63,055 bases of DNA from an uncultured Gammaproteobacteria bacterium (GTDB taxonomy: Bacteria; Patescibacteriota; Patescibacteriia; HK-STAS-PATE-3). The notes under the pieces are model-generated. The model did no database searches. It had not been told where the DNA came from and saw nothing but the letters and a program-made list of their open reading frames with translations. Within the stretch, counting starts at the first letter, position 1. Each line of letters opens with the position of its first letter. The position numbers and the translations under genes are program-made. Positions 8,942 through 39,800 of this stretch are shown here, in pieces. The DNA lies in assembly GCA_964637345.1 (NCBI GenBank), contig CAZWTD010000004.1:1-63055 (forward strand), in the 5' to 3' direction.

Positions 8942-9016
8942 CTACGACTTCCCTGAACGAAAAGGGCAAATCCGATTAAACTCGCACTCAGCGCAGAGGA
9001 AGGGGTCTGGGGTGGC
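8942..9016 (-). pseudogene. Orphan duplicate of the helicase 3' end (ATPDPFLCAECEFNRICPFRSGKS*)
   Basis: 8958-9013 matches 10395-10450 at 52/56 nt, with a 32-nt perfect core. The differences are synonymous. Confidence 0.9.
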
Positions 9017-9060
9017 GGAGATTCTGTCCTGCGGATTGCTTAAATAATATCAAGGTATAT

Positions 9061-9088
9061 TTGACAATTATATTATTTATGTTATTTT
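9061..9088 (+). promoter_or_regulatory. Sigma70 promoter of the islet gene
   Basis: TTGACA-N16-TATTTT with extended TG in an AT-rich tract. Confidence 0.55.
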
Positions 9089-9130
9089 GACGAGTCCAAA
9101 AATAAAAACTAATAACCATGGAGGTGCCCT

Positions 9131-10255
9131 TTGAAAAAGTATGAGATCTTGCGTGCGATGGGTTGGACTCCGGTCCAAATCGCTGCTTTGCTGGATAGGG
9201 GAATTCCCCAACATGCAAAGGACCAATGCTTCCTCCACCGCTTCTGTCCCGAGCTTCGACCGGAGATTGAAGGGCGGTTAAAGGCGGGTCACTCGACGAT
9301 CAGAGAGTGGGAAAAACTGGCATCCTTAGATCCAGTTCTTCCATTCACTAAGGTTCACGATTTTGTTCTTGATCAGATTCTACCCCTCTTAGGAACTACG
9401 GTCGCCATTATTGATTCAATGTGCCAACTTGAGATGCGAGCAGATTCCATTAATCATCACCCTTGGACCCAGACAGCGTATGCAAGGGCGTTGTCCTTTG
9501 CAGCCAGCCTGGAGGACTGGATTTATCTCTGGCACTTCAGTCACGAAAAAGAAGTATCGAGACGGGCTGAGGCAAAAATCAGAGAGATGTGCTCCACGAA
9601 AGAAGACTGGGTGCACTTTCTTGAGAAGGCGGATGAGCTCGAAGCCTTTGAACGGGAGCTCTACGAATTTGCTGAACGGTTAGTCGGCAGAGAAATGGAA
9701 GATTCTGATCCTGGACTCAGCCTAAACACACACGCAGCCAGATCCACTTCTGATCCGGCGCTTGACTACCTTCGAACAGTTACGGCCTCTCTTCATGGAG
9801 AAATCACCGGAGACCCACAACAACTCTTCCAAGAACTCTTGCGACAGGTGCAGATTCTTCAGAGTGACGACAGCTGCGGTCCAGAACGAGCCTCGGCTAC
9901 CGGCTGGATCATGGATTGTCCGCTTCCCTTTTCTGCCTTCCTAACGGTAGCTAGACAACTCCCAATCGCTACCAAGCCAGAGGAGAAGATCTGGCAGTAT
10001 GTTAGCCGTGACGCTGAGTGTGGGGCGAATGACGCTGTTGTGAAGCGATTGATCGAAACGGCTCAAACACTGAGGGAATGTCACGCGGCGATCAAATACG
10101 CCCCAGACAGTGCTCGGCTAGCTCGCAAGTTCACCGCACTGGCCACATCGATTGAAGACTGGCTCTTTATCTGGAAGTTGGGACTTCAGACGCACAACGC
10201 TGAGCTACAAGACCTCGCATTTGTGAACGCTCTCCAGTATGCCACGGAGAGTTAA
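9131..10255 (+). CDS. Hypothetical alpha-helical repeat protein (islet cargo)
   Basis: GGAGGTG SD before a TTG start, with recurring A-x-[ST]-x-x-[DE]-W units. Confidence 0.7.
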   Translation: MKKYEILRAMGWTPVQIAALLDRGIPQHAKDQCFLHRFCPELRPEIEGRLKAGHSTIREWEKLASLDPVLPFTKVHDFVLDQILPLLGTTVAIIDSMCQLEMRADSINHHPWTQTAYARALSFAASLEDWIYLWHFSHEKEVSRRAEAKIREMCSTKEDWVHFLEKADELEAFERELYEFAERLVGREMEDSDPGLSLNTHAARSTSDPALDYLRTVTASLHGEITGDPQQLFQELLRQVQILQSDDSCGPERASATGWIMDCPLPFSAFLTVARQLPIATKPEEKIWQYVSRDAECGANDAVVKRLIETAQTLRECHAAIKYAPDSARLARKFTALATSIEDWLFIWKLGLQTHNAELQDLAFVNALQYATES

Positions 10256-10279
10256 TTCACAAGCATCAACGGCCTTTTC

Positions 10280-10314
10280 AGCAGCGACTAGCGAGGAACT
10301 AGTCGCTGCTTTTT
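10280..10314 (+). terminator. Intrinsic terminator
   Basis: Perfect 12-bp stem AGCAGCGACTAG/CTAGTCGCTGCT followed by TTTT. Confidence 0.85.
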
Positions 10315-10378
10315 CATATGCTTTCCCTTGCATCAGTCGCCTATTTGTGAGTATCTTTGTACTTTCCTTCTAAAATCT

Positions 10379-13300
10379 CTATCCTCTTCCCGCCCGAAAG
10401 GGGCAAATTCGATTGAATTCGCACTCAGCGCAGAGGAAGGGGTCTGGGGTTGCAACAAAATCTAGAGATTCTATTGCTTGTATTGCGTTGAGCGCCCAGT
10501 CTTTCGCTTTGTCGAGCTCGGCCGGCTTCGGTTCTTTCGTAACTTTTTTGTTTTCATCAATATAGAAAAGGCTCAGTTGGCGAACCGGCCGACCGAGTAA
10601 CTCTGGATCGCTGACTGCGAGCGCGTAGAGGAGAAGTTGATACCAGCGATCAGCCGACGGCTTCTCCTTAGCCGGTCCGGTTTTATAATCAATAATCTCA
10701 ACGCCCTCCGAATCCCCGGGAATCGGATCAACGCGGTCAATCTTCCCGCCGAGAATCCTCCCGTCAAACTTAAGCGTGAAGGATTGCTCAAGAAGAAGAG
10801 GAACAGGAAAGGCGCCTTCTTGTGCCTTGTAAAAACGCTCAAGAACTGCCCATCCCTCCTTTTTTCGTTGCTCCATCTCGCGCTCTGAAGCGTACCATTC
10901 ACGAATCCAGGCTGACGCATACAAGGTCTTGAGTTCCTCAAGCGAAACGAGAGGCTTCGTACCCGACGAAGTTTGGGCGCCGAACAAGCTTCCCTGCTGC
11001 TGAACGCTTCGCTGTCGAACGAGCTGAAAAAAATGATAGAGCGTAGCGTGGATCGACGATCCATAGGACAGTCGCGCGTTACCGGACACCGGAACGTCAA
11101 GGACATAACGATAGCGATATTTCCATGGACAAAGCTCGTAGGCGCTTAAGCGCGAATAGTCGTAACGTTCGTTTGTCCGGACCTTCCGAATAATCGCCTC
11201 GGGCTCTCCGTCCGCGACCCTCTGCGACAAAAGCGGGGCGAGCTTCGGCTGGCGAACTCGCTCTTCAGCAGCAGACTCTTTCGTCACCAACCCAAGCTCT
11301 TCGAGAAACAGAGAAGCTTTTTTCCGACGCGCCCCGCCGTAATCTAAGGCCCGACATAAAATGATATGCTCTTTCGCGCGGGTCAAGGCAACATAAAAAA
11401 GCCGGCGCTCCTCTTCGAGATGAATATCGCCCTCCGGGAGCGGCTCGCGAATCAAGGCATCTGGGACCGGAATTCCCTCGCTCCGGTCGCGGGACGGAAA
11501 ACGCTGTTCAACGAGGTGGACAACGAACACCATGCGAAACTCCAAGCCCTTCGCCGCATGAACCGTCATCACCTTCACGCTATCCGGCCCGTCTTCAGGG
11601 GCGGTTTCGAGCCGACCGAGCTCACCGGCGTCTATCGCAAGATCAATGACCTCAAGGAATGCTCGGACGTTGGGCGCAAGTTTTCCGCGCTCGAATTCAA
11701 CGACCTCGTTTAAGAGCTGATTCGCGTAGCCAATTTCGGCCTCGCGCTTCGGATCATCCGGCGCTTCGCTTAGCCACTTCAAATACCCGCTCTCTTCAAG
11801 GAAGCTTACGATAACTTCTCGAGGCGTAGCGCGACGAGCGAGCTCTGCATGTCGGCTGATAAGGCTCAGGAGCCGGTCAGCGTCTGCATGCGCTTCCGGA
11901 CGCCAATCAGCGAGGAGGGCGTGATCGCGCAAGACGGCGAAGGTCGATCGGCTCTGGCGGCGCGCGGTTTCATTCAAAAGAATGACGTCATCAGCCCGAA
12001 ATCGAAACATCGGGAGATTGAGCACCCGCTGAAGCGCGACGCTTTCATGATAATTGTCGAGAAGTCGCACGTAGGCAAAAATGTCGAGCACGATACTCAT
12101 CCGGTAGAGGCCACGCGAAGCGACGTATTGGTACGGAAGACCGTTCCGTTCCAACTCGGACAGAAAGAGCTCAGCGTGGTCATTAGCCCGAACGAGAATT
12201 GCTACGTCGCTCCAGGCTAGCGTCGCGTCGGCATTTTTCGCCTCTAAAATTTTCCCGACGACCGTCCGCGCCTCTTCAGCCTCAGTCTCAGCCACAACAC
12301 ACTGAATGGATCCGGCGTCCGGTCGCGCTGCAGTGAGTCTCTTAGAAACGGTCGTCCCGAGCTGCTTCGGAGCGGCGCTGAGCTGGGCCTCGAGCCGATT
12401 GGGGTTATTCTTTTGAATAAACGCATACGCCGCGTCGAGGATGGACTGGGCCGAACGGTAATTCTCCGTCAAAACGACGTCAGTGCTGTCCGGATAATCG
12501 TGCTTAAAGCCGAGGATATTCGCGACGGACGCGCCGCGGAACTTATAGATCGATTGATCATCATCTCCGACGACGGTGAGGTTTCTCCGCTTTCCGGCCA
12601 AGAGTTTCACTAACTCGTACTGCGCCCAGTTCGTATCTTGAAATTCATCAACGAGGATGGCGCGGAATTGCTCTTGGTAACGAGCGAGGATCGCCGGCCG
12701 CTCCCGAAAGAGGCGCATCGTCTCAACAATCAGATCGCCAAAATCGAGCCCCCAATGCTCGCGGAGCAAGCGCGTGTAGCGGTCGTAGCTTTCCGCGAGT
12801 TCGCGAAGGCGGTCGAGGTCGAGCGTTTCTTCATCCGCCGACACCCCGGGAACTCCGTCACTCGCATCACGATCGAGCTGAAGTTTTTTTACGAAATCGA
12901 GATAGTCGGCCGGCGTCACTCCCTCATCCTTTAATCGTGAAAAATGACTGACGAGGGATTTAAGAAATTTCGTGGGCTTTCCTGATGGGCGGTAATAGGA
13001 CAAGGGAAACTCGTCGAGGTGTTTTCGGAGAAACAGCCATTGCTGCCGTTCATTGAACAGCTCAAAGTCGCCCGGTAGACCGATATCAATCGCGTACTCC
13101 CGAAGAATGCGCTCGCCAAAGCCGTGGAAGGTCGACACCCACAAATCGAGATAGCCGTAGGGAACGCGCCGGTCAATTCGCTCCGCCATCTCGCCCGCCG
13201 CCTTTTCGGTAAAAGTCAAACACAATATTTCGTCCGGCCGGTACTTCTTCTCGGTCATGAGCCAGGCCATGCGCTCAACAATCACGGTGGTTTTGCCGGT

Positions 13301-20595: not shown

Positions 20596-20646
20596 TTAGT
20601 GAGGCTCAAGGGTCGCGATCCTGACGCGCTTCGCGCTCAGGATGGC
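20596..20646 (-). repeat. Degenerate tandem copy of the atpB 3' end containing a palindrome
   Basis: Encodes AILSAKRVRIATLEPH* versus atpB AILTLVFIKVATLEPH*. It contains ATCCTGACGCGCTTCGCGCTCAGGAT. Confidence 0.75.
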
Positions 20647-22884: not shown

Positions 22885-22992
22885 TTATAACAGCTCCCCG
22901 CTCGCAAGGTGCTGACTAGCCTGCGAGTAGTTCGCATAAAACACCAAACATAACCTTTATGCGCAATTATTTCGCATAATAACGAGTTGTAC
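22885..22992 (+). other. Degenerate attC-like recombination site preceding cassette 1
   Basis: TTATAAC(22885) and ACATAAC(22948), hairpins CTCGCAAGG/CCTGCGAG and TTATGCG/CGCATAA, ending in GTTGTAC. Confidence 0.45.
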
Positions 22993-23949
22993 GAAAATTT
23001 GCCTCCCTCATTATCAGATAAGCGCGGCTATACCACCAAGATTACTAAACACCGAATGACCCACAAATACCACATGCTAAAGTTCGACGTATTAGCAAAT
23101 GTTATATCGGGTCTTTTTGGAATAACTACAAAAAATAAAAGTGTTTTTGAAATCCCATCTGATTTCTTACTCATGTTTGATTTACAGGTAGAATTTCAAC
23201 AATGGCCTGATAAATCTGAAAGAAATGAAAGAGTGCATCAATTAGCCTCGAGACTGATATTAGCATTTAACGATATAAATGAATCGATTGGTTCATTAAA
23301 CAGAAATCTTGTTTTGCTAAATAGTGACTTTAGTTTGGTTAGAGTAAAAAAGATTCCGATTCAAAAAGCATTACTGGAGAAAAGACTAGACCAAGTATTC
23401 CATGATGTAAGAGTTTCTAAAGGTCTCTCTAGTATAATTACGCCCCATATAAAAAGTTCTCTAACTCTTTTATTAAGATCATATGTTGATCGGGTTGCTG
23501 AGGACTGTAAAAAGGTGGTCGAAGTAATTTCTCCAAGAGGTAACCCTTTAGTTAAAAACCTCAACGTGCCTCCCGCATACTTGCAGCAAACCAACGAGGT
23601 GTTAGATCTATTTTACCTTGGGTACAAATCTACAAGCCTACTGGTCTTAGGAAAACTATTTGAGGGAATATTAACTCGCTACATTATTCGTCTTGTGCAA
23701 TCGAATAAAATTAATTTGAACATGTCGGCCCTTAGAGAGATGACGTTTGATAATAAACTTGGACTATTGTTTTCAAAAGGATTTGTTACAAGAAAAGATT
23801 ACTTGATTCTTGCTAAACTGATTTGGGATAGGAACATTGGTGGGCATTTTGTGAGCGAAAGAAAACGTAGGGAATCAGAAAAAGAGGCAGAGGCCACAAT
23901 TAAGTTAGTTATGCCCTTATTGAAGAAGTATGACACAAAACTGAAATGA
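22987..23949 (+). CDS. Cassette 1: protein with C-terminal HEPN/DUF4145-like domain
   Basis: AT-rich. LVLGKLFEGIL..DRNIGGH contains R-x4-H. Alternative ATG at 23056. Confidence 0.7.
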   Translation: MYENLPPSLSDKRGYTTKITKHRMTHKYHMLKFDVLANVISGLFGITTKNKSVFEIPSDFLLMFDLQVEFQQWPDKSERNERVHQLASRLILAFNDINESIGSLNRNLVLLNSDFSLVRVKKIPIQKALLEKRLDQVFHDVRVSKGLSSIITPHIKSSLTLLLRSYVDRVAEDCKKVVEVISPRGNPLVKNLNVPPAYLQQTNEVLDLFYLGYKSTSLLVLGKLFEGILTRYIIRLVQSNKINLNMSALREMTFDNKLGLLFSKGFVTRKDYLILAKLIWDRNIGGHFVSERKRRESEKEAEATIKLVMPLLKKYDTKLK

Positions 23950-23988
23950 TAGCCGCGCTTATCTTTATTAGACGATCGGCAAATCATC

Positions 23989-24045
23989 GTACAACAGCGT
24001 CTATACGACATAACGAGTACGTCGTATGAGACGCAAACGTTAGGT
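23989..24045 (+). other. attC site 1 (57 bp)
   Basis: GTACAAC-A-GCGTCT-ATACGAC..GTCGTAT-G-AGACGC-AAAC-GTTAGGT, including an extrahelical G. Confidence 0.9.
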
Positions 24046-24063
24046 GCCATTTCGTCTCATAAC

Positions 24064-24654
24064 ATGTTGAAAGCTACGCTCGATAGAAATTGCTTAATAA
24101 GCCTGAAGGAAAAAGACGGCGAGTTTGAAGAAATTCAGGAAATTATTGAATTACATAAAAAGAAAAGTGTTACCGTTTTTGTATGTGCCATAAGCGCTTC
24201 TGAATATCAGAGTGACGGTAGCATATCTCCTAAATATGATGATTTTACAAATTACCTAAAATCAATTGGCTGTGAAACTTTGGATGAGCTAGAACCCATG
24301 GCATATTGGGATATAGCTTATTGGGATCACGCTCTCTGGTCTGGGGATTCTATGAAAGAGTTTGAGAAAAAAATACACGAAATTCTTTTCCCAAATCTCG
24401 AATTCGAATATCAAACTTTTTGCAAAGCAAAAGGAATTGATCCTGATGCTAAACCATTAGATAAAAAATGGCTGAATGCAAAAGCCGACGTACAATCCAT
24501 CTGGTCTCACATCAATTCAGGGAATGATATATTTATTACGCAAGACAAAAACTATTTAAAGGATCAAAAACGGCAACTATTAGTAACGCTTGGCGCAAAG
24601 AATATCAACTCGCCGAAGGAGGCATTAGAAATCATCCGACGAAACGGCACCTAA
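24064..24654 (+). CDS. Cassette 2: PIN-domain-like protein
   Basis: TLDRNCL, SASE, KADVQ, DIFITQDKNY acidic pattern. The stop TAA lies within the inverse core ACCTAAC. Confidence 0.72.
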   Translation: MLKATLDRNCLISLKEKDGEFEEIQEIIELHKKKSVTVFVCAISASEYQSDGSISPKYDDFTNYLKSIGCETLDELEPMAYWDIAYWDHALWSGDSMKEFEKKIHEILFPNLEFEYQTFCKAKGIDPDAKPLDKKWLNAKADVQSIWSHINSGNDIFITQDKNYLKDQKRQLLVTLGAKNINSPKEALEIIRRNGT

Positions 24655-25011
24655 CACGGGCTAGCCGGTTCGCGAGCTATACAACTTGTTTATCACTAAG
24701 CCATAAAAATATGTCAGCAGAATGGGTTTCAGCGGTAGCGGCGGTTATTTCAGTCCCAATATCTGTTTGGGCGATAATATCCGCAAGAAATAACTCTAAG
24801 AACATAAAGAACATCTCCCAACGCTTTGGGATAGTAATGGAAGGCAATACGGTAATTGGCTCTGGTACCGCAGTACATATTGGTGACAGGAAATAAGTTT
24901 GCTATACGCTCGCTCACCCAAATTGCTCATTCATTCCGGCGGTACCTCGCTTTGCTCGATATTCTACCGCCTCAATTCCGTCGCAACTTCGGCTAGCCCG
25001 AAACGTTGTGC
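24649..25011 (+). other. attC site 2, interrupted by a 225-bp insertion (138 bp when reconstituted)
   Basis: ACCTAAC-A-CGGGCTAGCCG ... CGGCTAGCCCG-AAAC-GTTGTGC, a perfect 11-bp stem. Confidence 0.8.
24711..24896 (+). CDS. 61-aa single-TM hypothetical protein nested in attC2
   Basis: N-terminal hydrophobic helix. Flanked by GCTATAC direct repeats at 24676 and 24901. Confidence 0.6.
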   Translation: MSAEWVSAVAAVISVPISVWAIISARNNSKNIKNISQRFGIVMEGNTVIGSGTAVHIGDRK

Positions 25012-25110
25012 GCCATCAGATGTATTTTACCTATTAAAGAACCGAGGCAGTTACTTCGCGCATTGCGGAGTACTTACCTCGGCGTTTCGTCGGGTCGCTG
25101 GTGATAACAG

Positions 25111-25506
25111 TCAGTCGATTCTGGATCTCGACGCGTTCGCCAGGTCGTCGATGACGAGTAATGTGGCGAGTCTGCTCGGATCATCCTTGATGACGTAGCC
25201 CGAGAAGGAACTCCGGGTGCCGTCAAGTCTTTGGAGCTCGACGACACTGACATTCCACTCAATCCCGGAAGATCCCAACCGGATGATCGTGGTCGACTCG
25301 TCGACGGCGAAGGCAGAGCTGTTATCGACAGTGCACTGTGCGATCCCGTCGTACCAGTAGACACCGAGGGTGCCCGTCGCACTCTGGAAGTGGAGCACCA
25401 TGGAATCGGTTGGAACAATGTGGCTGGTGAGTCGCACGCTACTGCACCCGGCGGACGCCCCGACGAAGAGCGTACCGATCAACACAAGGAACGTGAAACG
25501 CCTCAT
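25111..25506 (-). CDS. Cassette 3: predicted lipoprotein, reverse orientation
   Basis: AAGGAGG SD, signal peptide with lipobox-like SAG-C. Confidence 0.7.
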   Translation of the reverse strand: MRRFTFLVLIGTLFVGASAGCSSVRLTSHIVPTDSMVLHFQSATGTLGVYWYDGIAQCTVDNSSAFAVDESTTIIRLGSSGIEWNVSVVELQRLDGTRSSFSGYVIKDDPSRLATLLVIDDLANASRSRID

Positions 25507-25587
25507 AGCGAACCCTCCTTCAGTTGGGACGTTTGCCTGGCGGGGATCAAGACAATCGGTAGTTGCCAGATTTCTACCGAACGTGCG

Positions 25588-25616
25588 AGCGTATCACGAA
25601 ATGACTATAATGTCAA
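25588..25616 (-). promoter_or_regulatory. Cassette-internal sigma70 promoter
   Basis: TTGACA-N17-TACGCT with extended TG. Confidence 0.7.
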
Positions 25617-25646
25617 TAGAAACTGTAAGAAAATACATCTTACAGC

Positions 25647-25708
25647 GCACAACACGGCGTATACGCCACTCCGTTTCTCTCCGCAGCGCATACGCCGAAA
25701 CGTTAGCT
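25647..25708 (+). other. attC site 3 (62 bp)
   Basis: GCACAAC-A-CGGCGTAT..ATACGCCG-AAAC-GTTAGCT. Confidence 0.88.
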
Positions 25709-25730
25709 GACACTCAGGATTCTCACTTTT

Positions 25731-26210
25731 ATGACCTATAAACACACCCAAGTTAGCTACCTGATGATTACCGTAACGGCTGCGGTACTGATCCTCTTCG
25801 CCTGGGTGTATCTTACTGCCCGGGCCGAGGCGCCGTCCTATGACTCAGGAACAAACGCCGGCGTTACTGGAGCTATGGCGCTCGTCGTCGTTCTCCTCGC
25901 TTCCTTCGTTTCCTTGCACGTACGAATTGATGATCAGCGTCTACGGATCTCCTTTGGCTATGGCATTTTTACAAAGCACTTTGCCCTGCGCGACATCCAA
26001 TCAGCGAACGTCGTAAGAAATAAATGGTATTACGGGCTAGGAATACGCTGGTCCCTGAAGCCGAGGATGTGGATCTACGCCGTTTCCGGCCTTGACGCAG
26101 TTGAACTACAACTGAAGAACGGAAAAGTCTACCGGATCGGTACGGACGAAGCTCAAGAACTCGAGGGCGCGATTCTCCAATCGATACAAAGGGAACAGCG
26201 CGACTTCTGA
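25731..26210 (+). CDS. Cassette 4: two-TM protein with bacterial PH-like C-terminal domain
   Basis: Begins 29 nt after the core GTT. Two TMs, then WYYGLGIR..VSGLDAVEL..IGTDE. No matching attC seen downstream. Confidence 0.75.
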   Translation: MTYKHTQVSYLMITVTAAVLILFAWVYLTARAEAPSYDSGTNAGVTGAMALVVVLLASFVSLHVRIDDQRLRISFGYGIFTKHFALRDIQSANVVRNKWYYGLGIRWSLKPRMWIYAVSGLDAVELQLKNGKVYRIGTDEAQELEGAILQSIQREQRDF

Positions 26211-32595: not shown

Positions 32596-34047
32596 CTAAC
32601 GGCTTTCTAACTTCAGCCTCGGAAATAGACCTTCGCCCTTCGTAATCTTCTCGGCCGAAAACGCTTCCCGAATTCGCTTTCCGGTTTCCGGCAGAAAGGG
32701 TTCAACTAAGCCAGCAAGAGCCAGCAGGCTCTTCGCCCAGCGCGAGAGGTGATTTCGGACCCCTGCCTCGTCGGTTTTTACCAGCACCCAGGGCTTAGCC
32801 GCATCGATCTCTTCATCAATCGCGGTCACGAAACTCTGAATCGTTGTTAACGCGCCCTGAAGGTGGAGCTTCGTCATTTCCTCCTGATATTTCTCAACGA
32901 GCGCCGTACTCTGCTGATCGAGTTCGAGCGTCCGGTCAACCTGGCCGTCGCAGTATTGCTCGATCATCTTCGCCGTCCGCGCAACGAGGTTCCCGAGGCC
33001 GTTCACGAGATGAGCTTCGTACTGTTCAGCCAACACGCTCGGACGAATATCGCCGTCGCTCCCAAAACGGAACTGACTTAAGAGAAGAAAACGGGTCGCG
33101 TCGACGCCATACTTCGCAATGAGATCATTCGGATCAAGAACATTCCCGAGCGACTTCGACATCTTCGTCCCGTTCAGGGTGAAAAAGCCGTGCGCGAAAA
33201 TCCGGCGCGGTAACTCCTCCCCGGCCGCCAAGAGCATCGCCGGCCAGTAGACTGCATGAAACTTCAGGATATCCTTCGCCATGAGGTGAAGATCAGCCGG
33301 CCACCATTTCGTATACTCAGCCTCATCCGCTCCGTAGCCGATCGCGCTCACGTAATTCATTAACGCCTCAACCCAGACGTAGATCTTCTGGCCGTCCTCG
33401 TAGGGAAAAGGAATTCCCCATTCAACGCGCTGGCGGGTGATTGAGAAATTGTTTAAGCCCTGATCAATCAAGGCGAGGACTTCATTCCGCCGAGCCTCGG
33501 GCTCGATGCGAAGCGCATTCGTCTCGATCAACGCACGAACCTTCGGGAGATACTCTTCAAGGTGAAAAAACCAGTTGTCCTCCTTCACAAGCTCAGGACT
33601 GGTTTTGTGGATCGGACATTTCCCGTCGACGAGATCTTTCTCGGTATAAAAATCCTCGCAGCCTCGGCAATAGAGGCCTTCATAGGTCCCTTTATACAGA
33701 GCGTTTGCCTTATAGAGCTTATCGATAAATTTATGGACGGCATCAGCGTGACTCGGGAGAGTCGTTCGCATGAAAATATCATTACTGATATCGAGAGCTC
33801 GGAAAGCTGACTCAAACGCTTTCGCGTTCTCATCGACAAATTCCTGAATCTCGAGATTGGCCGCCATGGCGCTCGCTGCTACCTTATCCCCGTGCTCATC
33901 CGTCCCCGTTAAAAAGAACACATCGTCGCCGAGTGAGCGATGATAGCGCGCGAGAACGTCTGCCGCGAGGGTCGTATAGGCATGCCCCAGATGCGGCTTA
34001 TCGTTGACATAGTATATTGGCGTGGTGACGTAGAATTTCTTCACCAT
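32596..34047 (-). CDS. metG: Methionine--tRNA ligase (short form)
   Basis: YVTTPIYYVNDKPHLGH, GTDEHG, KMSKS. ATG at 34047. Confidence 0.96.
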   Translation of the reverse strand: MVKKFYVTTPIYYVNDKPHLGHAYTTLAADVLARYHRSLGDDVFFLTGTDEHGDKVAASAMAANLEIQEFVDENAKAFESAFRALDISNDIFMRTTLPSHADAVHKFIDKLYKANALYKGTYEGLYCRGCEDFYTEKDLVDGKCPIHKTSPELVKEDNWFFHLEEYLPKVRALIETNALRIEPEARRNEVLALIDQGLNNFSITRQRVEWGIPFPYEDGQKIYVWVEALMNYVSAIGYGADEAEYTKWWPADLHLMAKDILKFHAVYWPAMLLAAGEELPRRIFAHGFFTLNGTKMSKSLGNVLDPNDLIAKYGVDATRFLLLSQFRFGSDGDIRPSVLAEQYEAHLVNGLGNLVARTAKMIEQYCDGQVDRTLELDQQSTALVEKYQEEMTKLHLQGALTTIQSFVTAIDEEIDAAKPWVLVKTDEAGVRNHLSRWAKSLLALAGLVEPFLPETGKRIREAFSAEKITKGEGLFPRLKLESR

Positions 34048-34124
34048 AGATTGGGTCGTAATGCCTGCCCCACACAAGGAGCGAAGCAACGCGATGCGGG
34101 GTAGAACTTCTTGGGTTCAGTCAT
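34030..34124 (-). repeat. Duplicated metG start (MTEPKKFY / MVKKFY) around a palindromic insert
   Basis: AAGAAGTTCTAC (34101-34112) versus AAGAAATTCTAC (34030-34041), offset 71. Confidence 0.65.
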
Positions 34125-34133
34125 AGCGCTCCG

Positions 34134-34162
34134 ATTGTACGACCCTTTCCCGAGACAAGCAA
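34134..34162 (-). promoter_or_regulatory. Sigma70 promoter of metG
   Basis: TTGCTT-N17-TACAAT, 9 nt before ATG 34124. Confidence 0.7.
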
Positions 34163-34187
34163 GTCTCCGCCCAATTCTGAAAACGCA

Positions 34188-34862
34188 TTACTCCGGCGCG
34201 ACCAGGACTACGAACTCCCCCTTTTGACGCTTCGGATCAAGCTCAAGCTCGGCCTTGATCGTGACCGCATCGCCCCGGAGAATTTCCTCGTAGATTTTTG
34301 TCAGCTCGCGCCCGATGACGAGGCGCCGGCTCGGACAAAGGGCATGCAGTTGATCAAGCGTTTTCAGAATCCGATGGGTCGACTCGAAAAAAACCATCGG
34401 ATAGGGACTCTCGGCGATCTGACGGAAGAGCGTTTCGCGGCCTTTTTTATGAGGCAAAAAACCGAGGAAGGTAAAACGATCCGTTGGTAGTCCGGCGACC
34501 GAGAGAAGAGTTGTAACCGCGCTTGGTCCCGGAATCGGCTCAACGCGAATCCCGGCTTCAACCGCCCGCTGGACAAGGAGATTGCCGGGATCAGAAATTC
34601 CCGGCGTCCCCGCGTCCGAAACGAGGACCGCGTTCTTTCCTTCCTTCAGCCAGGCGAGGATATCATCAATGCGCTCAAGCCGACTATGCTGGTGATAGGA
34701 AATGAGCGGCTTGGCAATCCCAAAACGATCAAGGAGGACGCGCGTCACCCGCGTGTCTTCGCAAAGTACAAAATCAGCCCGCTGGAGCACAGCCTGACCG
34801 CGAATCGTCAAATCATCGAGATTGCCGATCGGCGTACCGAGAATAGAGAGCGTGCCGGCCAT
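34188..34862 (-). CDS. rsmI: 16S rRNA C1402 2'-O-methyltransferase
   Basis: GTPIGNL, CEDTR, SDAGTPGISDPG, PGPSA, RELTKIYEE. Confidence 0.95.
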   Translation of the reverse strand: MAGTLSILGTPIGNLDDLTIRGQAVLQRADFVLCEDTRVTRVLLDRFGIAKPLISYHQHSRLERIDDILAWLKEGKNAVLVSDAGTPGISDPGNLLVQRAVEAGIRVEPIPGPSAVTTLLSVAGLPTDRFTFLGFLPHKKGRETLFRQIAESPYPMVFFESTHRILKTLDQLHALCPSRRLVIGRELTKIYEEILRGDAVTIKAELELDPKRQKGEFVVLVAPE

Positions 34863-39721: not shown

Positions 39722-39760
39722 ATAAAAAAAGAGCCCCGCACCATTGCAGTGGTGCGGGGC
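39722..39760 (-). terminator. Intrinsic terminator
   Basis: Perfect 11-bp stem GCCCCGCACCA/TGGTGCGGGGC followed by TCTTTTTTT. Confidence 0.85.
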
Positions 39761-39800
39761 AAGGATCAGGCTACTGCCTCTCGAGTCGCGAGGTACGCGG

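Follow-up and report, generated by a model that had tools for sequence, protein, structure and literature searches.

Hairpin elements between a partial and an intact gene start in metG of a patescibacterial genome and its relatives

The metG locus

The window analysed here, i.e., the whole stretch of 63,055 nt presented above, belongs to a genome of about 1.0 Mb (36 contigs, G+C 54%), hereafter named G000, and contains on its minus strand, where the features described lie unless stated otherwise, the gene metG for methionyl-tRNA synthetase (MetRS), the first codons of which are present twice, on either side of a small hairpin element (Table 1). In the direction of transcription, the promoter-like motif TTGCTT-N17-TACAAT is followed by 9 nt (CGGAGCGCT), a spacing of the leaderless type, and then by the ATG at 34124, which opens a first copy of the gene start encoding MTEPKKFY. 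The hairpin interrupting this copy is formed by the arms CCCCGCA (34101-34095) and TGTGGGG (34074-34068), namely seven pairs including one G-T, with GCTTCGC at its apex and CAGGCATTAC as 3' motif; together with its tail (CAGGCATTACGACCCAATCT), it spans about 55 nt (34102-34048). Directly behind comes the second copy, ATG GTG AAG AAA TTC TAC (MVKKFY, 34047-34030), then GTC, from which the N-terminus of MetRS is predicted to read (M)VKKFYVTTPIYYVNDK…. The 12-nt cores of the two copies (34112-34101 and 34041-34030) are identical at 11 of 12 positions and offset by 71 nt. From ATG 34124, a frame of 27 codons, hereafter the decoy frame, with the predicted peptide MTEPKKFYPASR, runs through the element up to a TGA overlapping the new start. 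In the preliminary description of this DNA, made from the sequence alone, the promoter-like motif 9 nt before the ATG of MTEPKKFY, the palindrome followed by MVKKFY in the metG frame and the upstream open reading frame (ORF) closing inside ATGGTGA had all been reported, and all of them can be read directly on the minus strand.

A promoter and terminator scanner called neither a promoter nor a terminator-like site at this locus; its silence as regards the promoter is explained by its -35 criterion, which excludes TTGCTT, a hexamer matching the consensus at just 3 of 6 positions. The RNA fold of the hairpin of the window is not more stable than that of shuffled sequence (z = +0.28). A BLAST search found no second copy of the 150-nt region in G000, and a search of positions 33800-34400 against Rfam at E <= 10 returned no relevant family, the sole match being to a glutamine riboswitch in the wrong orientation, with 14.8 bits for a cut-off of 35 bits.

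The start of metG in relatives

The 5' end of metG was inspected in 55 genomes of the same class as G000. Ten of them, G000 counted and representing 7 families, carry the same succession of a partial start, a CCCCG…CGGGG hairpin, a tail and an intact start, the others being G088, G255, G013, G037, G033, G241, G029, G146 and G347, the latter with two nested insertions. The junction falls after FY in 4 events, after VND in 6 and after KPH in 1. The layout is identical in complete or near-complete single-contig genomes, e.g., G255 and G347, and in three genomes the decoy frame is disrupted, i.e., by a frameshift in G037, by the lack of an ATG in G029 and by a deletion in G146. As for the nested case of G347 (contig C1, ~391300-391560), the order is MAKRFY, element, MSKKFYITTPIYYVND, element and MKKFYITTPIYYVNDKPH…, where the first element looks composite.

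The remaining metG loci, about 80% of those inspected, are devoid of the element. In these uninterrupted relatives, the best-matching ones included, metG begins with M(A/S/K)K(K/R)FY located 8-11 nt behind TATACT or TATAAT (L032, L033, L034, L037, L040, L045 and L054), or directly behind the stop codon of rsmI. In G000 itself, -10-like hexamers are found 6-9 nt upstream of the ATG of long ORFs in 26, 11, 14 and 16 cases for a background of about 4, while motifs resembling a Shine-Dalgarno (SD) sequence precede some 18% of crude gene starts versus some 10% for the background; leaderless-type starts are thus common and starts without SD normal in this genome, and the TACAAT-N9-ATG of metG fits this class. 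Considering both the spacing in relatives and the commonness of such starts, the upstream ATG is the old start of metG, which now opens the decoy frame. This agrees with the preliminary description, where the upstream ATG had been taken as original and its distance to the -10 box as common to other core genes of this DNA, a distance indeed strongly enriched before long ORFs in G000; relatives lacking the palindrome were not seen to start at MVKKFY behind the same upstream sequence but directly behind the -10 box, 8-11 nt after TAnAAT.

That the downstream ATG opens the real MetRS, as also proposed earlier, is borne out by the match to PF09334 and by G146, where the part downstream of the element aligns with an uninterrupted allele. 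The G146 bin (4% contamination) contains two metG loci, L044 (C19) and L091 (C77), with proteins 93% identical, one with the hairpin and one without, which are probably from two strains; as their upstream regions are unrelated, the pair shows only that copy 2 is the orthologous start.

A dispersed hairpin family

A covariance model, named R1, was built from six metG hairpins, the copy of the window among them. In the alignment of these six elements, 92.6% of the cells of the outer stem are paired, with 4 pairs changed on both sides, while slid controls reach 35-40%. The preliminary description rightly stated that the duplicated core is only 12 nt long, but the case no longer rests on geometry alone since the layout recurs in relatives and the window copy scores 56.4 bits with R1. 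At E <= 1, the model gives 24-31 matches each in G088, G347 and G241, most of them weak, and copies outside metG score up to 50 bits in G347. Across 151 genomes of the class, strong hits (E <= 1e-6) occur in 18. The element is found between a partial and an intact start in lepA, fusA and a response regulator gene, as well as within tRNA genes (Table 1), and further copies are intergenic, often adjoining tRNA genes. At the left junction, …YNA(C)/CCCG is found in 8 of 10 distinct sites. Judging from these sequences, the palindrome is a member of a dispersed hairpin family splitting other genes in other genomes, a dimension absent from the preliminary description. No account of elements of such type in bacteria of the Candidate Phyla Radiation (CPR), or of hairpins splitting duplicated gene starts, was found by full-text searches of the literature.

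In G000, the stem alone is not diagnostic, as a generic CCCCG…CGGGG scan gives 172 hits, mostly terminator-like. Scanning this genome for duplicated gene starts (15-mers, <=2 mismatches) yielded only tRNA-like and ordinary repeats, such settings being too strict for the 12-nt repeat of metG. Near-identical hairpins of the form CCCCGCACCA-N5/6-TGGTGCGGGG were observed in the window (39733-39772) and elsewhere in G000 (C5:25020, C26:6456 and C9 near 39345); they are terminator-like, with a T-run on one strand, and their stem sequence is common to the gene-splitting family.

Table 1. The metG locus of the window, and interrupted genes carrying the element in related genomes (a slash marks a junction).
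Feature	Location	Strand	Remarks
rsmI-like methyltransferase (TP_methylase), upstream neighbour	34188-34862	-	PF00590, E = 1.6e-31; stop TAA 34190-34188
Promoter-like TTGCTT-N17-TACAAT	34134-34162	-	-35-like TTGCTT 34162-34157, 17-nt spacer, -10 TACAAT 34139-34134
Copy 1, old metG start	34101-34124	-	ATG ACT GAA CCC AAG AAG TTC TAC (MTEPKKFY); cut at junction TA(C)/CCCG after codon 8
Decoy frame, 27 codons	34041-34124	-	MTEPKKFYPASRCFAPCVGQALRPNLW, then stop; from old start through element to TGA overlapping new start
Hairpin element core, ~49 nt	34054-34102	-	R1 56.4 bits, E = 2.4e-14 in window
Element tail end (..CCAATCT)	34048-34053	-	Abuts new ATG; tail conserved with G088 (ACACCAATTT)
ATGGTGA	34041-34047	-	New metG ATG 34047-34045 overlapping decoy TGA 34043-34041
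metG coding sequence, 483 aa	32596-34047	-	MVKKFYVTTPIYYVNDKPHLGH…; PF09334, E = 8.5e-102; gene call of the collection also 483 aa
metG	G088 (L056)		MNKKFY/CCCGCAC..GCGGGGCAAGCATTAC../ATG; very similar to window
metG	G255 (L036)		MSKKFY/CCCGTACC…
metG	G013, G037, G033, G241		M..YYITTPIYYVND/CCCG…
metG	G029		…VNDKPH/CC…
metG	G347 (L042)		Nested double insertion; metG starts three times in succession
lepA	G241		MSNFIRNFCIIAHIDH/element/MSNCIRNFCIIAHIDHGKST
lepA	G036		Junction one codon earlier than in G241
fusA	G118		~24 codons twice; different frame; junction off codon boundary
Response regulator	G125		Partial start/element/intact start
tRNA genes	G146 (L097, C29), G131 (L089, C11), G033 (L096, C3)		Partial end piece, element, whole tRNA; either strand relative to element

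Divergence between the two copies

Over 15 cases, the two copies of an interrupted gene end show 83 synonymous versus 13 nonsynonymous codon differences at a nucleotide identity of about 75-90%, where random change would give some 80% nonsynonymous differences; the selection of cases by protein similarity cannot yield 15:1 at 78% identity. With differences almost only synonymous, the upstream copy is not freely decaying, and the new start did not arise de novo but is coding sequence that was either duplicated or imported. 'Regenerated', the word of the preliminary description, is in this respect an oversimplification. Differences at third positions are directional, with G/C in copy 1 and A/T in copy 2 in 48 instances versus 23 for the reverse (p = 0.004, the cases not being independent). 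In the partial tRNA copies, changes in stems look compensated and the conserved loops are identical to those of the whole tRNA. In G146, for instance, the acceptor of tRNA-Ile reads GGGCGGC in one copy and GGGCACG in the other with an identical D arm, while the tRNA-Val half of G131 has different T and acceptor stems and the tRNA copies of G033 are 97% identical.

Both copies have lineage-specific residues in common, namely MSDP in G037, MNKKFY in G088 and RYY in G033, and the two copies of G146 share two derived synonymous states as compared with the 93%-identical uninterrupted allele; along with the 97% tRNA pair, these resemblances would favour duplication in place or a very close donor. 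Comparing the G+C content at third codon positions of each copy with that of the gene body, so as to tell native from foreign, gave no clear separation. As to the origin of the divergence, the copies may already have been different when joined, the downstream one being an imported replacement end, or duplication in place may have been followed by fast recoding of the new start to A/T-rich codons, or else recombination within the population may maintain copy 1 like working alleles.

Access of ribosomes to the new start

Neither a -10-like hexamer 6-10 nt upstream nor an SD sequence is present before ATG 34047. On the simplest route to MetRS, ribosomes would read the decoy frame from the leaderless-type 5' end and re-initiate where stop and start overlap, which the ATGGTGA arrangement makes plausible. 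Among 13 protein-gene cases, 9 have their decoy stop -15 to +5 nt from the new ATG, versus 7 of 26 control frames (the other two frames), a geometry suggestive of coupling. Elsewhere, the stop and start are arranged as ATGA, as ATGAGTAA, or with the stop a few nucleotides before the ATG (TAAATATG). Decoy and gene differ in frame in 9/13 cases, the decoy ending before it joins the gene in all 13, and copy 2 retains its own ATG in 14/14 protein-gene cases. Some of the stops come from the AT-rich tails, and in some relatives a new -10 box that is plausible, or an SD, is present instead.

Duplicated gene ends and putative mobilising enzymes in G000

A mirror arrangement exists in the window at the 3' end of atpB (PF00119; 20596-20674, minus strand), where the intact gene ends with …ATLEPH and a stop codon (20653-20651), followed by a hairpin (20618-20643) and by a displaced ACC CTT GAG CCT CAC TAA (TLEPH and stop) with only synonymous differences; the sequence of this hairpin is unlike that of metG. 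Larger in size is the arrangement at the end of a gene for a UvrD/AddB-like helicase of 1015 aa (8990-10460, minus strand), which terminates with …ATPDPFLCAECEFNRICPFRAGRG and the last ~20 codons of which (…ATPDPFLCAECEFNRICPF…) occur twice, 1437 nt apart and with synonymous differences. The two copies flank a 1.4-kb insert with an orphan ORF of 374 aa (9131-10255, plus strand), for which no Pfam or NCBIfam family was found.

Each of five genomes tested has several small Y1/HUH genes (PF01797). In G000, they are located at C2:50199-50504, C13:18060-18266 and C11:22609-22809, and two of the three correspond to REP-associated tyrosine transposases (RAYT; NF047646, 114 and 122 bits for a cut-off of 80), REP standing for repetitive extragenic palindrome. 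No metG-type hairpin was found in the flanks of the RAYT genes of G000. Proteins of this type are candidate mobilising enzymes. Within its reading frame, the gene on C13 further seems to contain a G+C-rich, hairpin-like segment (RQGRDASQPRQGRDA…).

Interpretation of the metG arrangement

The reading favoured here, with a probability of about 0.72, is that a hairpin element coding for no protein lies within the first codons of metG, that the truncated old start has become a decoy and that the intact copy makes MetRS. The element, a core of ~49 nt with a short tail, is part of a family dispersed in Patescibacteria. Transcription would still begin at or just before ATG 34124; ribosomes would then translate the decoy frame through the hairpin and terminate at the TGA in ATGGTGA, where re-initiation at the overlapping ATG 34047 would yield a functional MetRS. 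Such an element looks like selfish or junk DNA, tolerated because the interrupted gene end is present twice, rather than like a purpose-built regulator, considering the differing sites and frames, the broken decoy frames, the weak fold and the lack of both an Rfam match and a terminator.

Several points weigh against this reading. As the reading is drawn from DNA sequence, the transcription start site, decoy translation and re-initiation are predictions. The metG copy is the only strong member of the family in G000, the next best scoring 25 bits and being terminator-like, so that its mobility in this genome would be hypothetical. Among 5.8 billion proteins, the closest MetRS is only 63% identical to that of G000 (relatives retrieved by this protein search bear names such as Patescibacteria and Kerfeldbacteria), which leaves the lineage without an empty-site allele. 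The 83:13 pattern misfits a free relic, meaning either that the history is not a simple duplication in place or that copy 1 is still constrained. Finally, the metG frame is free of stops from the element junction (34101) to ATG 34047 and includes, within the loop of the hairpin, the TTG 34089, from which a start could add 14 residues (N-terminus MLRSLCGAGITTQSMVKK…); from the sequence, MetRS may thus possess a longer N-terminus read in the main frame, and this frame is likewise open from the junction in 7/13 protein-gene cases, the metG of the window counted.

An explanation differing from the favoured one only in the origin of the copy is that the element brings along its own replacement end, i.e., that a unit made of the hairpin, the tail and a ready-made gene start from a related genome enters the gene at the corresponding codon, through recombination of a site-specific or one-ended kind, pushing aside the resident start. 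The synonymous excess is what would be expected of two alleles having diverged as working genes, the partial tRNA copies of G146 (tRNA-Ile) and G131 (tRNA-Val) have different but self-consistent stems, and the same codon boundaries were hit by clearly different variants within one family (G255 versus G347), which suggests targeting; the helicase insert with its 1.4 kb of cargo, also accompanied by a synonymously different duplicate of 20 codons, is in line with such a process. Both copies nonetheless share lineage-specific N-terminal residues, the derived synonymous states of G146 favour duplication in place or a very close donor, the tRNA copies of G033 are nearly the same, the directional third positions fit recoding after duplication in place, and the metG insert has neither recombinase nor cargo; as a whole, this origin is considered unlikely. 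Equally tentative is its extension, according to which the hairpins would mark a protein-less, 'self-repairing' integrative unit of ultra-small bacteria, a DNA segment ending in a hairpin, which homes to the first or last codons of essential genes and tRNA genes and supplies a recoded end for the one it displaces. If so, the unit would be mobilised in trans, e.g., by the RAYT-type HUH enzymes or by Xer-type recombinases encoded in these genomes, the long, synonymously diverged 'duplications' would each consist of two alleles that the insertion process had put side by side, instead of target-site duplications, and the hairpin-only inserts of metG and atpB on the one hand, and the 1.4-kb insert of the helicase gene on the other hand, would be the small and large versions of one process.

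A purpose-built regulatory leader for MetRS, sensing for instance the charging of initiator tRNA via leaderless initiation, could account for the recurrence before metG in 7 families, for a decoy stop often adjoining the real start and for an upstream copy conserved in amino acids. It is nevertheless very improbable considering that this hairpin also interrupts lepA, fusA, a response regulator gene and tRNA genes and is intergenic elsewhere, that metG has three insertion points and a nested double insertion in G347, that most inspected metG loci do without the element, that three genomes have a disrupted decoy, and that the window copy has no stable fold and no Rfam family. Recoding would instead make copy 1 the real N-terminus, ribosomes hopping from TAC 34103-34101 to TAC 34032-34030, or the RNA being excised, to read MTEPKKFYVTTP…. 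While the take-off and landing codons do match (TAC/TAC here, GAC/GAC or GAT at the VND site), the hairpin begins exactly after the take-off codon and the protein sequence of copy 1 is conserved, this is most improbable: copy 2 has its own ATG in every protein-gene case, copy 1 lacks its ATG, is frameshifted or is deleted in G029, G037 and G146, no stop follows the take-off codon, an out-of-frame TAC occurs earlier in the tail (ATTACG), the fusA junction is not at a codon boundary, and no acceptor stem could arise between the partial tRNA copies and the resident 3' half. That the arrangement comes from chance resemblance or from an assembly artefact, which the 12-nt repeat, the G-T pair and the unremarkable fold of the window might suggest, is scarcely credible in view of the R1 score of 56 bits, of the identical layout in single-contig genomes (G255 and G347) and of independent recurrence in four other protein genes.

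Comparison with known systems

The hairpins resemble REP sequences and the REPIN-RAYT systems in being imperfect, short and G+C-rich palindromes that encode nothing. Up to dozens of matches per genome, most of them weak, were seen in some genomes, and RAYT genes exist in G000. While REPs are extragenic by definition, however, metG-type hairpins lie inside the first 6-25 codons of metG, lepA, fusA and the response regulator gene and inside tRNA genes, a second gene-end copy of 18-75 nt flanks the hairpin, no RAYT gene is flanked by the hairpin and just one strong copy is found in G000. No report of REP/RAYT systems in CPR bacteria was found in the literature searched. Small palindromic repeats are usually regarded as extragenic passengers.

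Some integrative elements bring a new gene end with them, e.g., prophage e14 and phage 21 for the 3' part of icd, and islands in tRNA genes. The succession of a displaced partial copy, an insert and an intact gene, with mostly synonymous or structure-preserving differences, is found here as well, the 1.4-kb insert in the 3' end of the helicase gene representing a version of it in the window. In contrast, the metG insert of ~55 nt has no integrase, cargo or ORF of its own, and lies at the 5' end, where it must supply a start codon and leaves a decoy frame. Rickettsia palindromic elements (RPE) are in-frame insertions translated within the host protein. With RPE and with miniature inverted-repeat transposable elements (MITE) of the Correia/NEMIS type, the family shares the property of being small palindromic repeats that can land in or beside genes and are co-transcribed, but the metG-type element, unlike RPE, breaks the frame and the gene restarts behind at its own ATG. 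MITEs have terminal inverted repeats and a target duplication of 2-10 bp, whereas the repeat flanking the present element is 18-75 nt long, 75-92% identical and begins at the ATG of the gene. Palindrome-associated transposable elements (PATE) derived from insertion sequences IS200/IS605 insert 3' of a fixed tetranucleotide, with no target duplication and with different hairpins at both ends; here, a YNAC left flank is seen at 8/10 sites, yet with one hairpin only and a long flanking duplication.

As regards translation, the ATGGTGA at 34047-34041 has the proximity of stop and start known from termination-reinitiation coupling (ATGA/TGATG-type; 70S scanning), but the upstream cistron would here be a by-product in which the cut-off start of metG itself runs on into element sequence, and not a functional partner gene. 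T-box leaders of metG and other Rfam cis-regulators find no counterpart, as the metG locus matches no such family and has no terminator-like site. Programmed bypass of the T4 gene 60 type would fit the matching TAC/TAC, but not the absence of a stop after take-off, the ATG kept in copy 2 and the copy 1 broken in three genomes.

Altogether, the analysis suggests a family akin both to REP-like palindromic repeats and to integrative elements carrying a replacement gene end. Its significance lies in a hairpin that, in reduced genomes, repeatedly occupies the opening codons of essential genes of translation (metG, lepA and fusA) and the interior of tRNA genes, the split genes staying whole owing to the second copy of the interrupted end. 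For genome annotation, the right start is found by gene callers only by luck, the decoy frames mimicking N-termini. For gene expression in CPR bacteria, a leaderless essential gene would become one probably dependent on re-initiation. To our knowledge, no insertion mechanism makes synonymously diverged flanking copies of 18-75 nt, and the synonymous-only divergence is as such a concrete, testable puzzle.

Other features of the window

The window also contains an integron-like cassette array (22885-26210), the hairpins of which (TATGCG…CGCATA type) are unrelated in sequence, so that no link to the metG hairpin is claimed. The neighbourhood formed by metG and the rsmI-like gene upstream of it is found again in relatives, where the upstream gene ends with GEFV...

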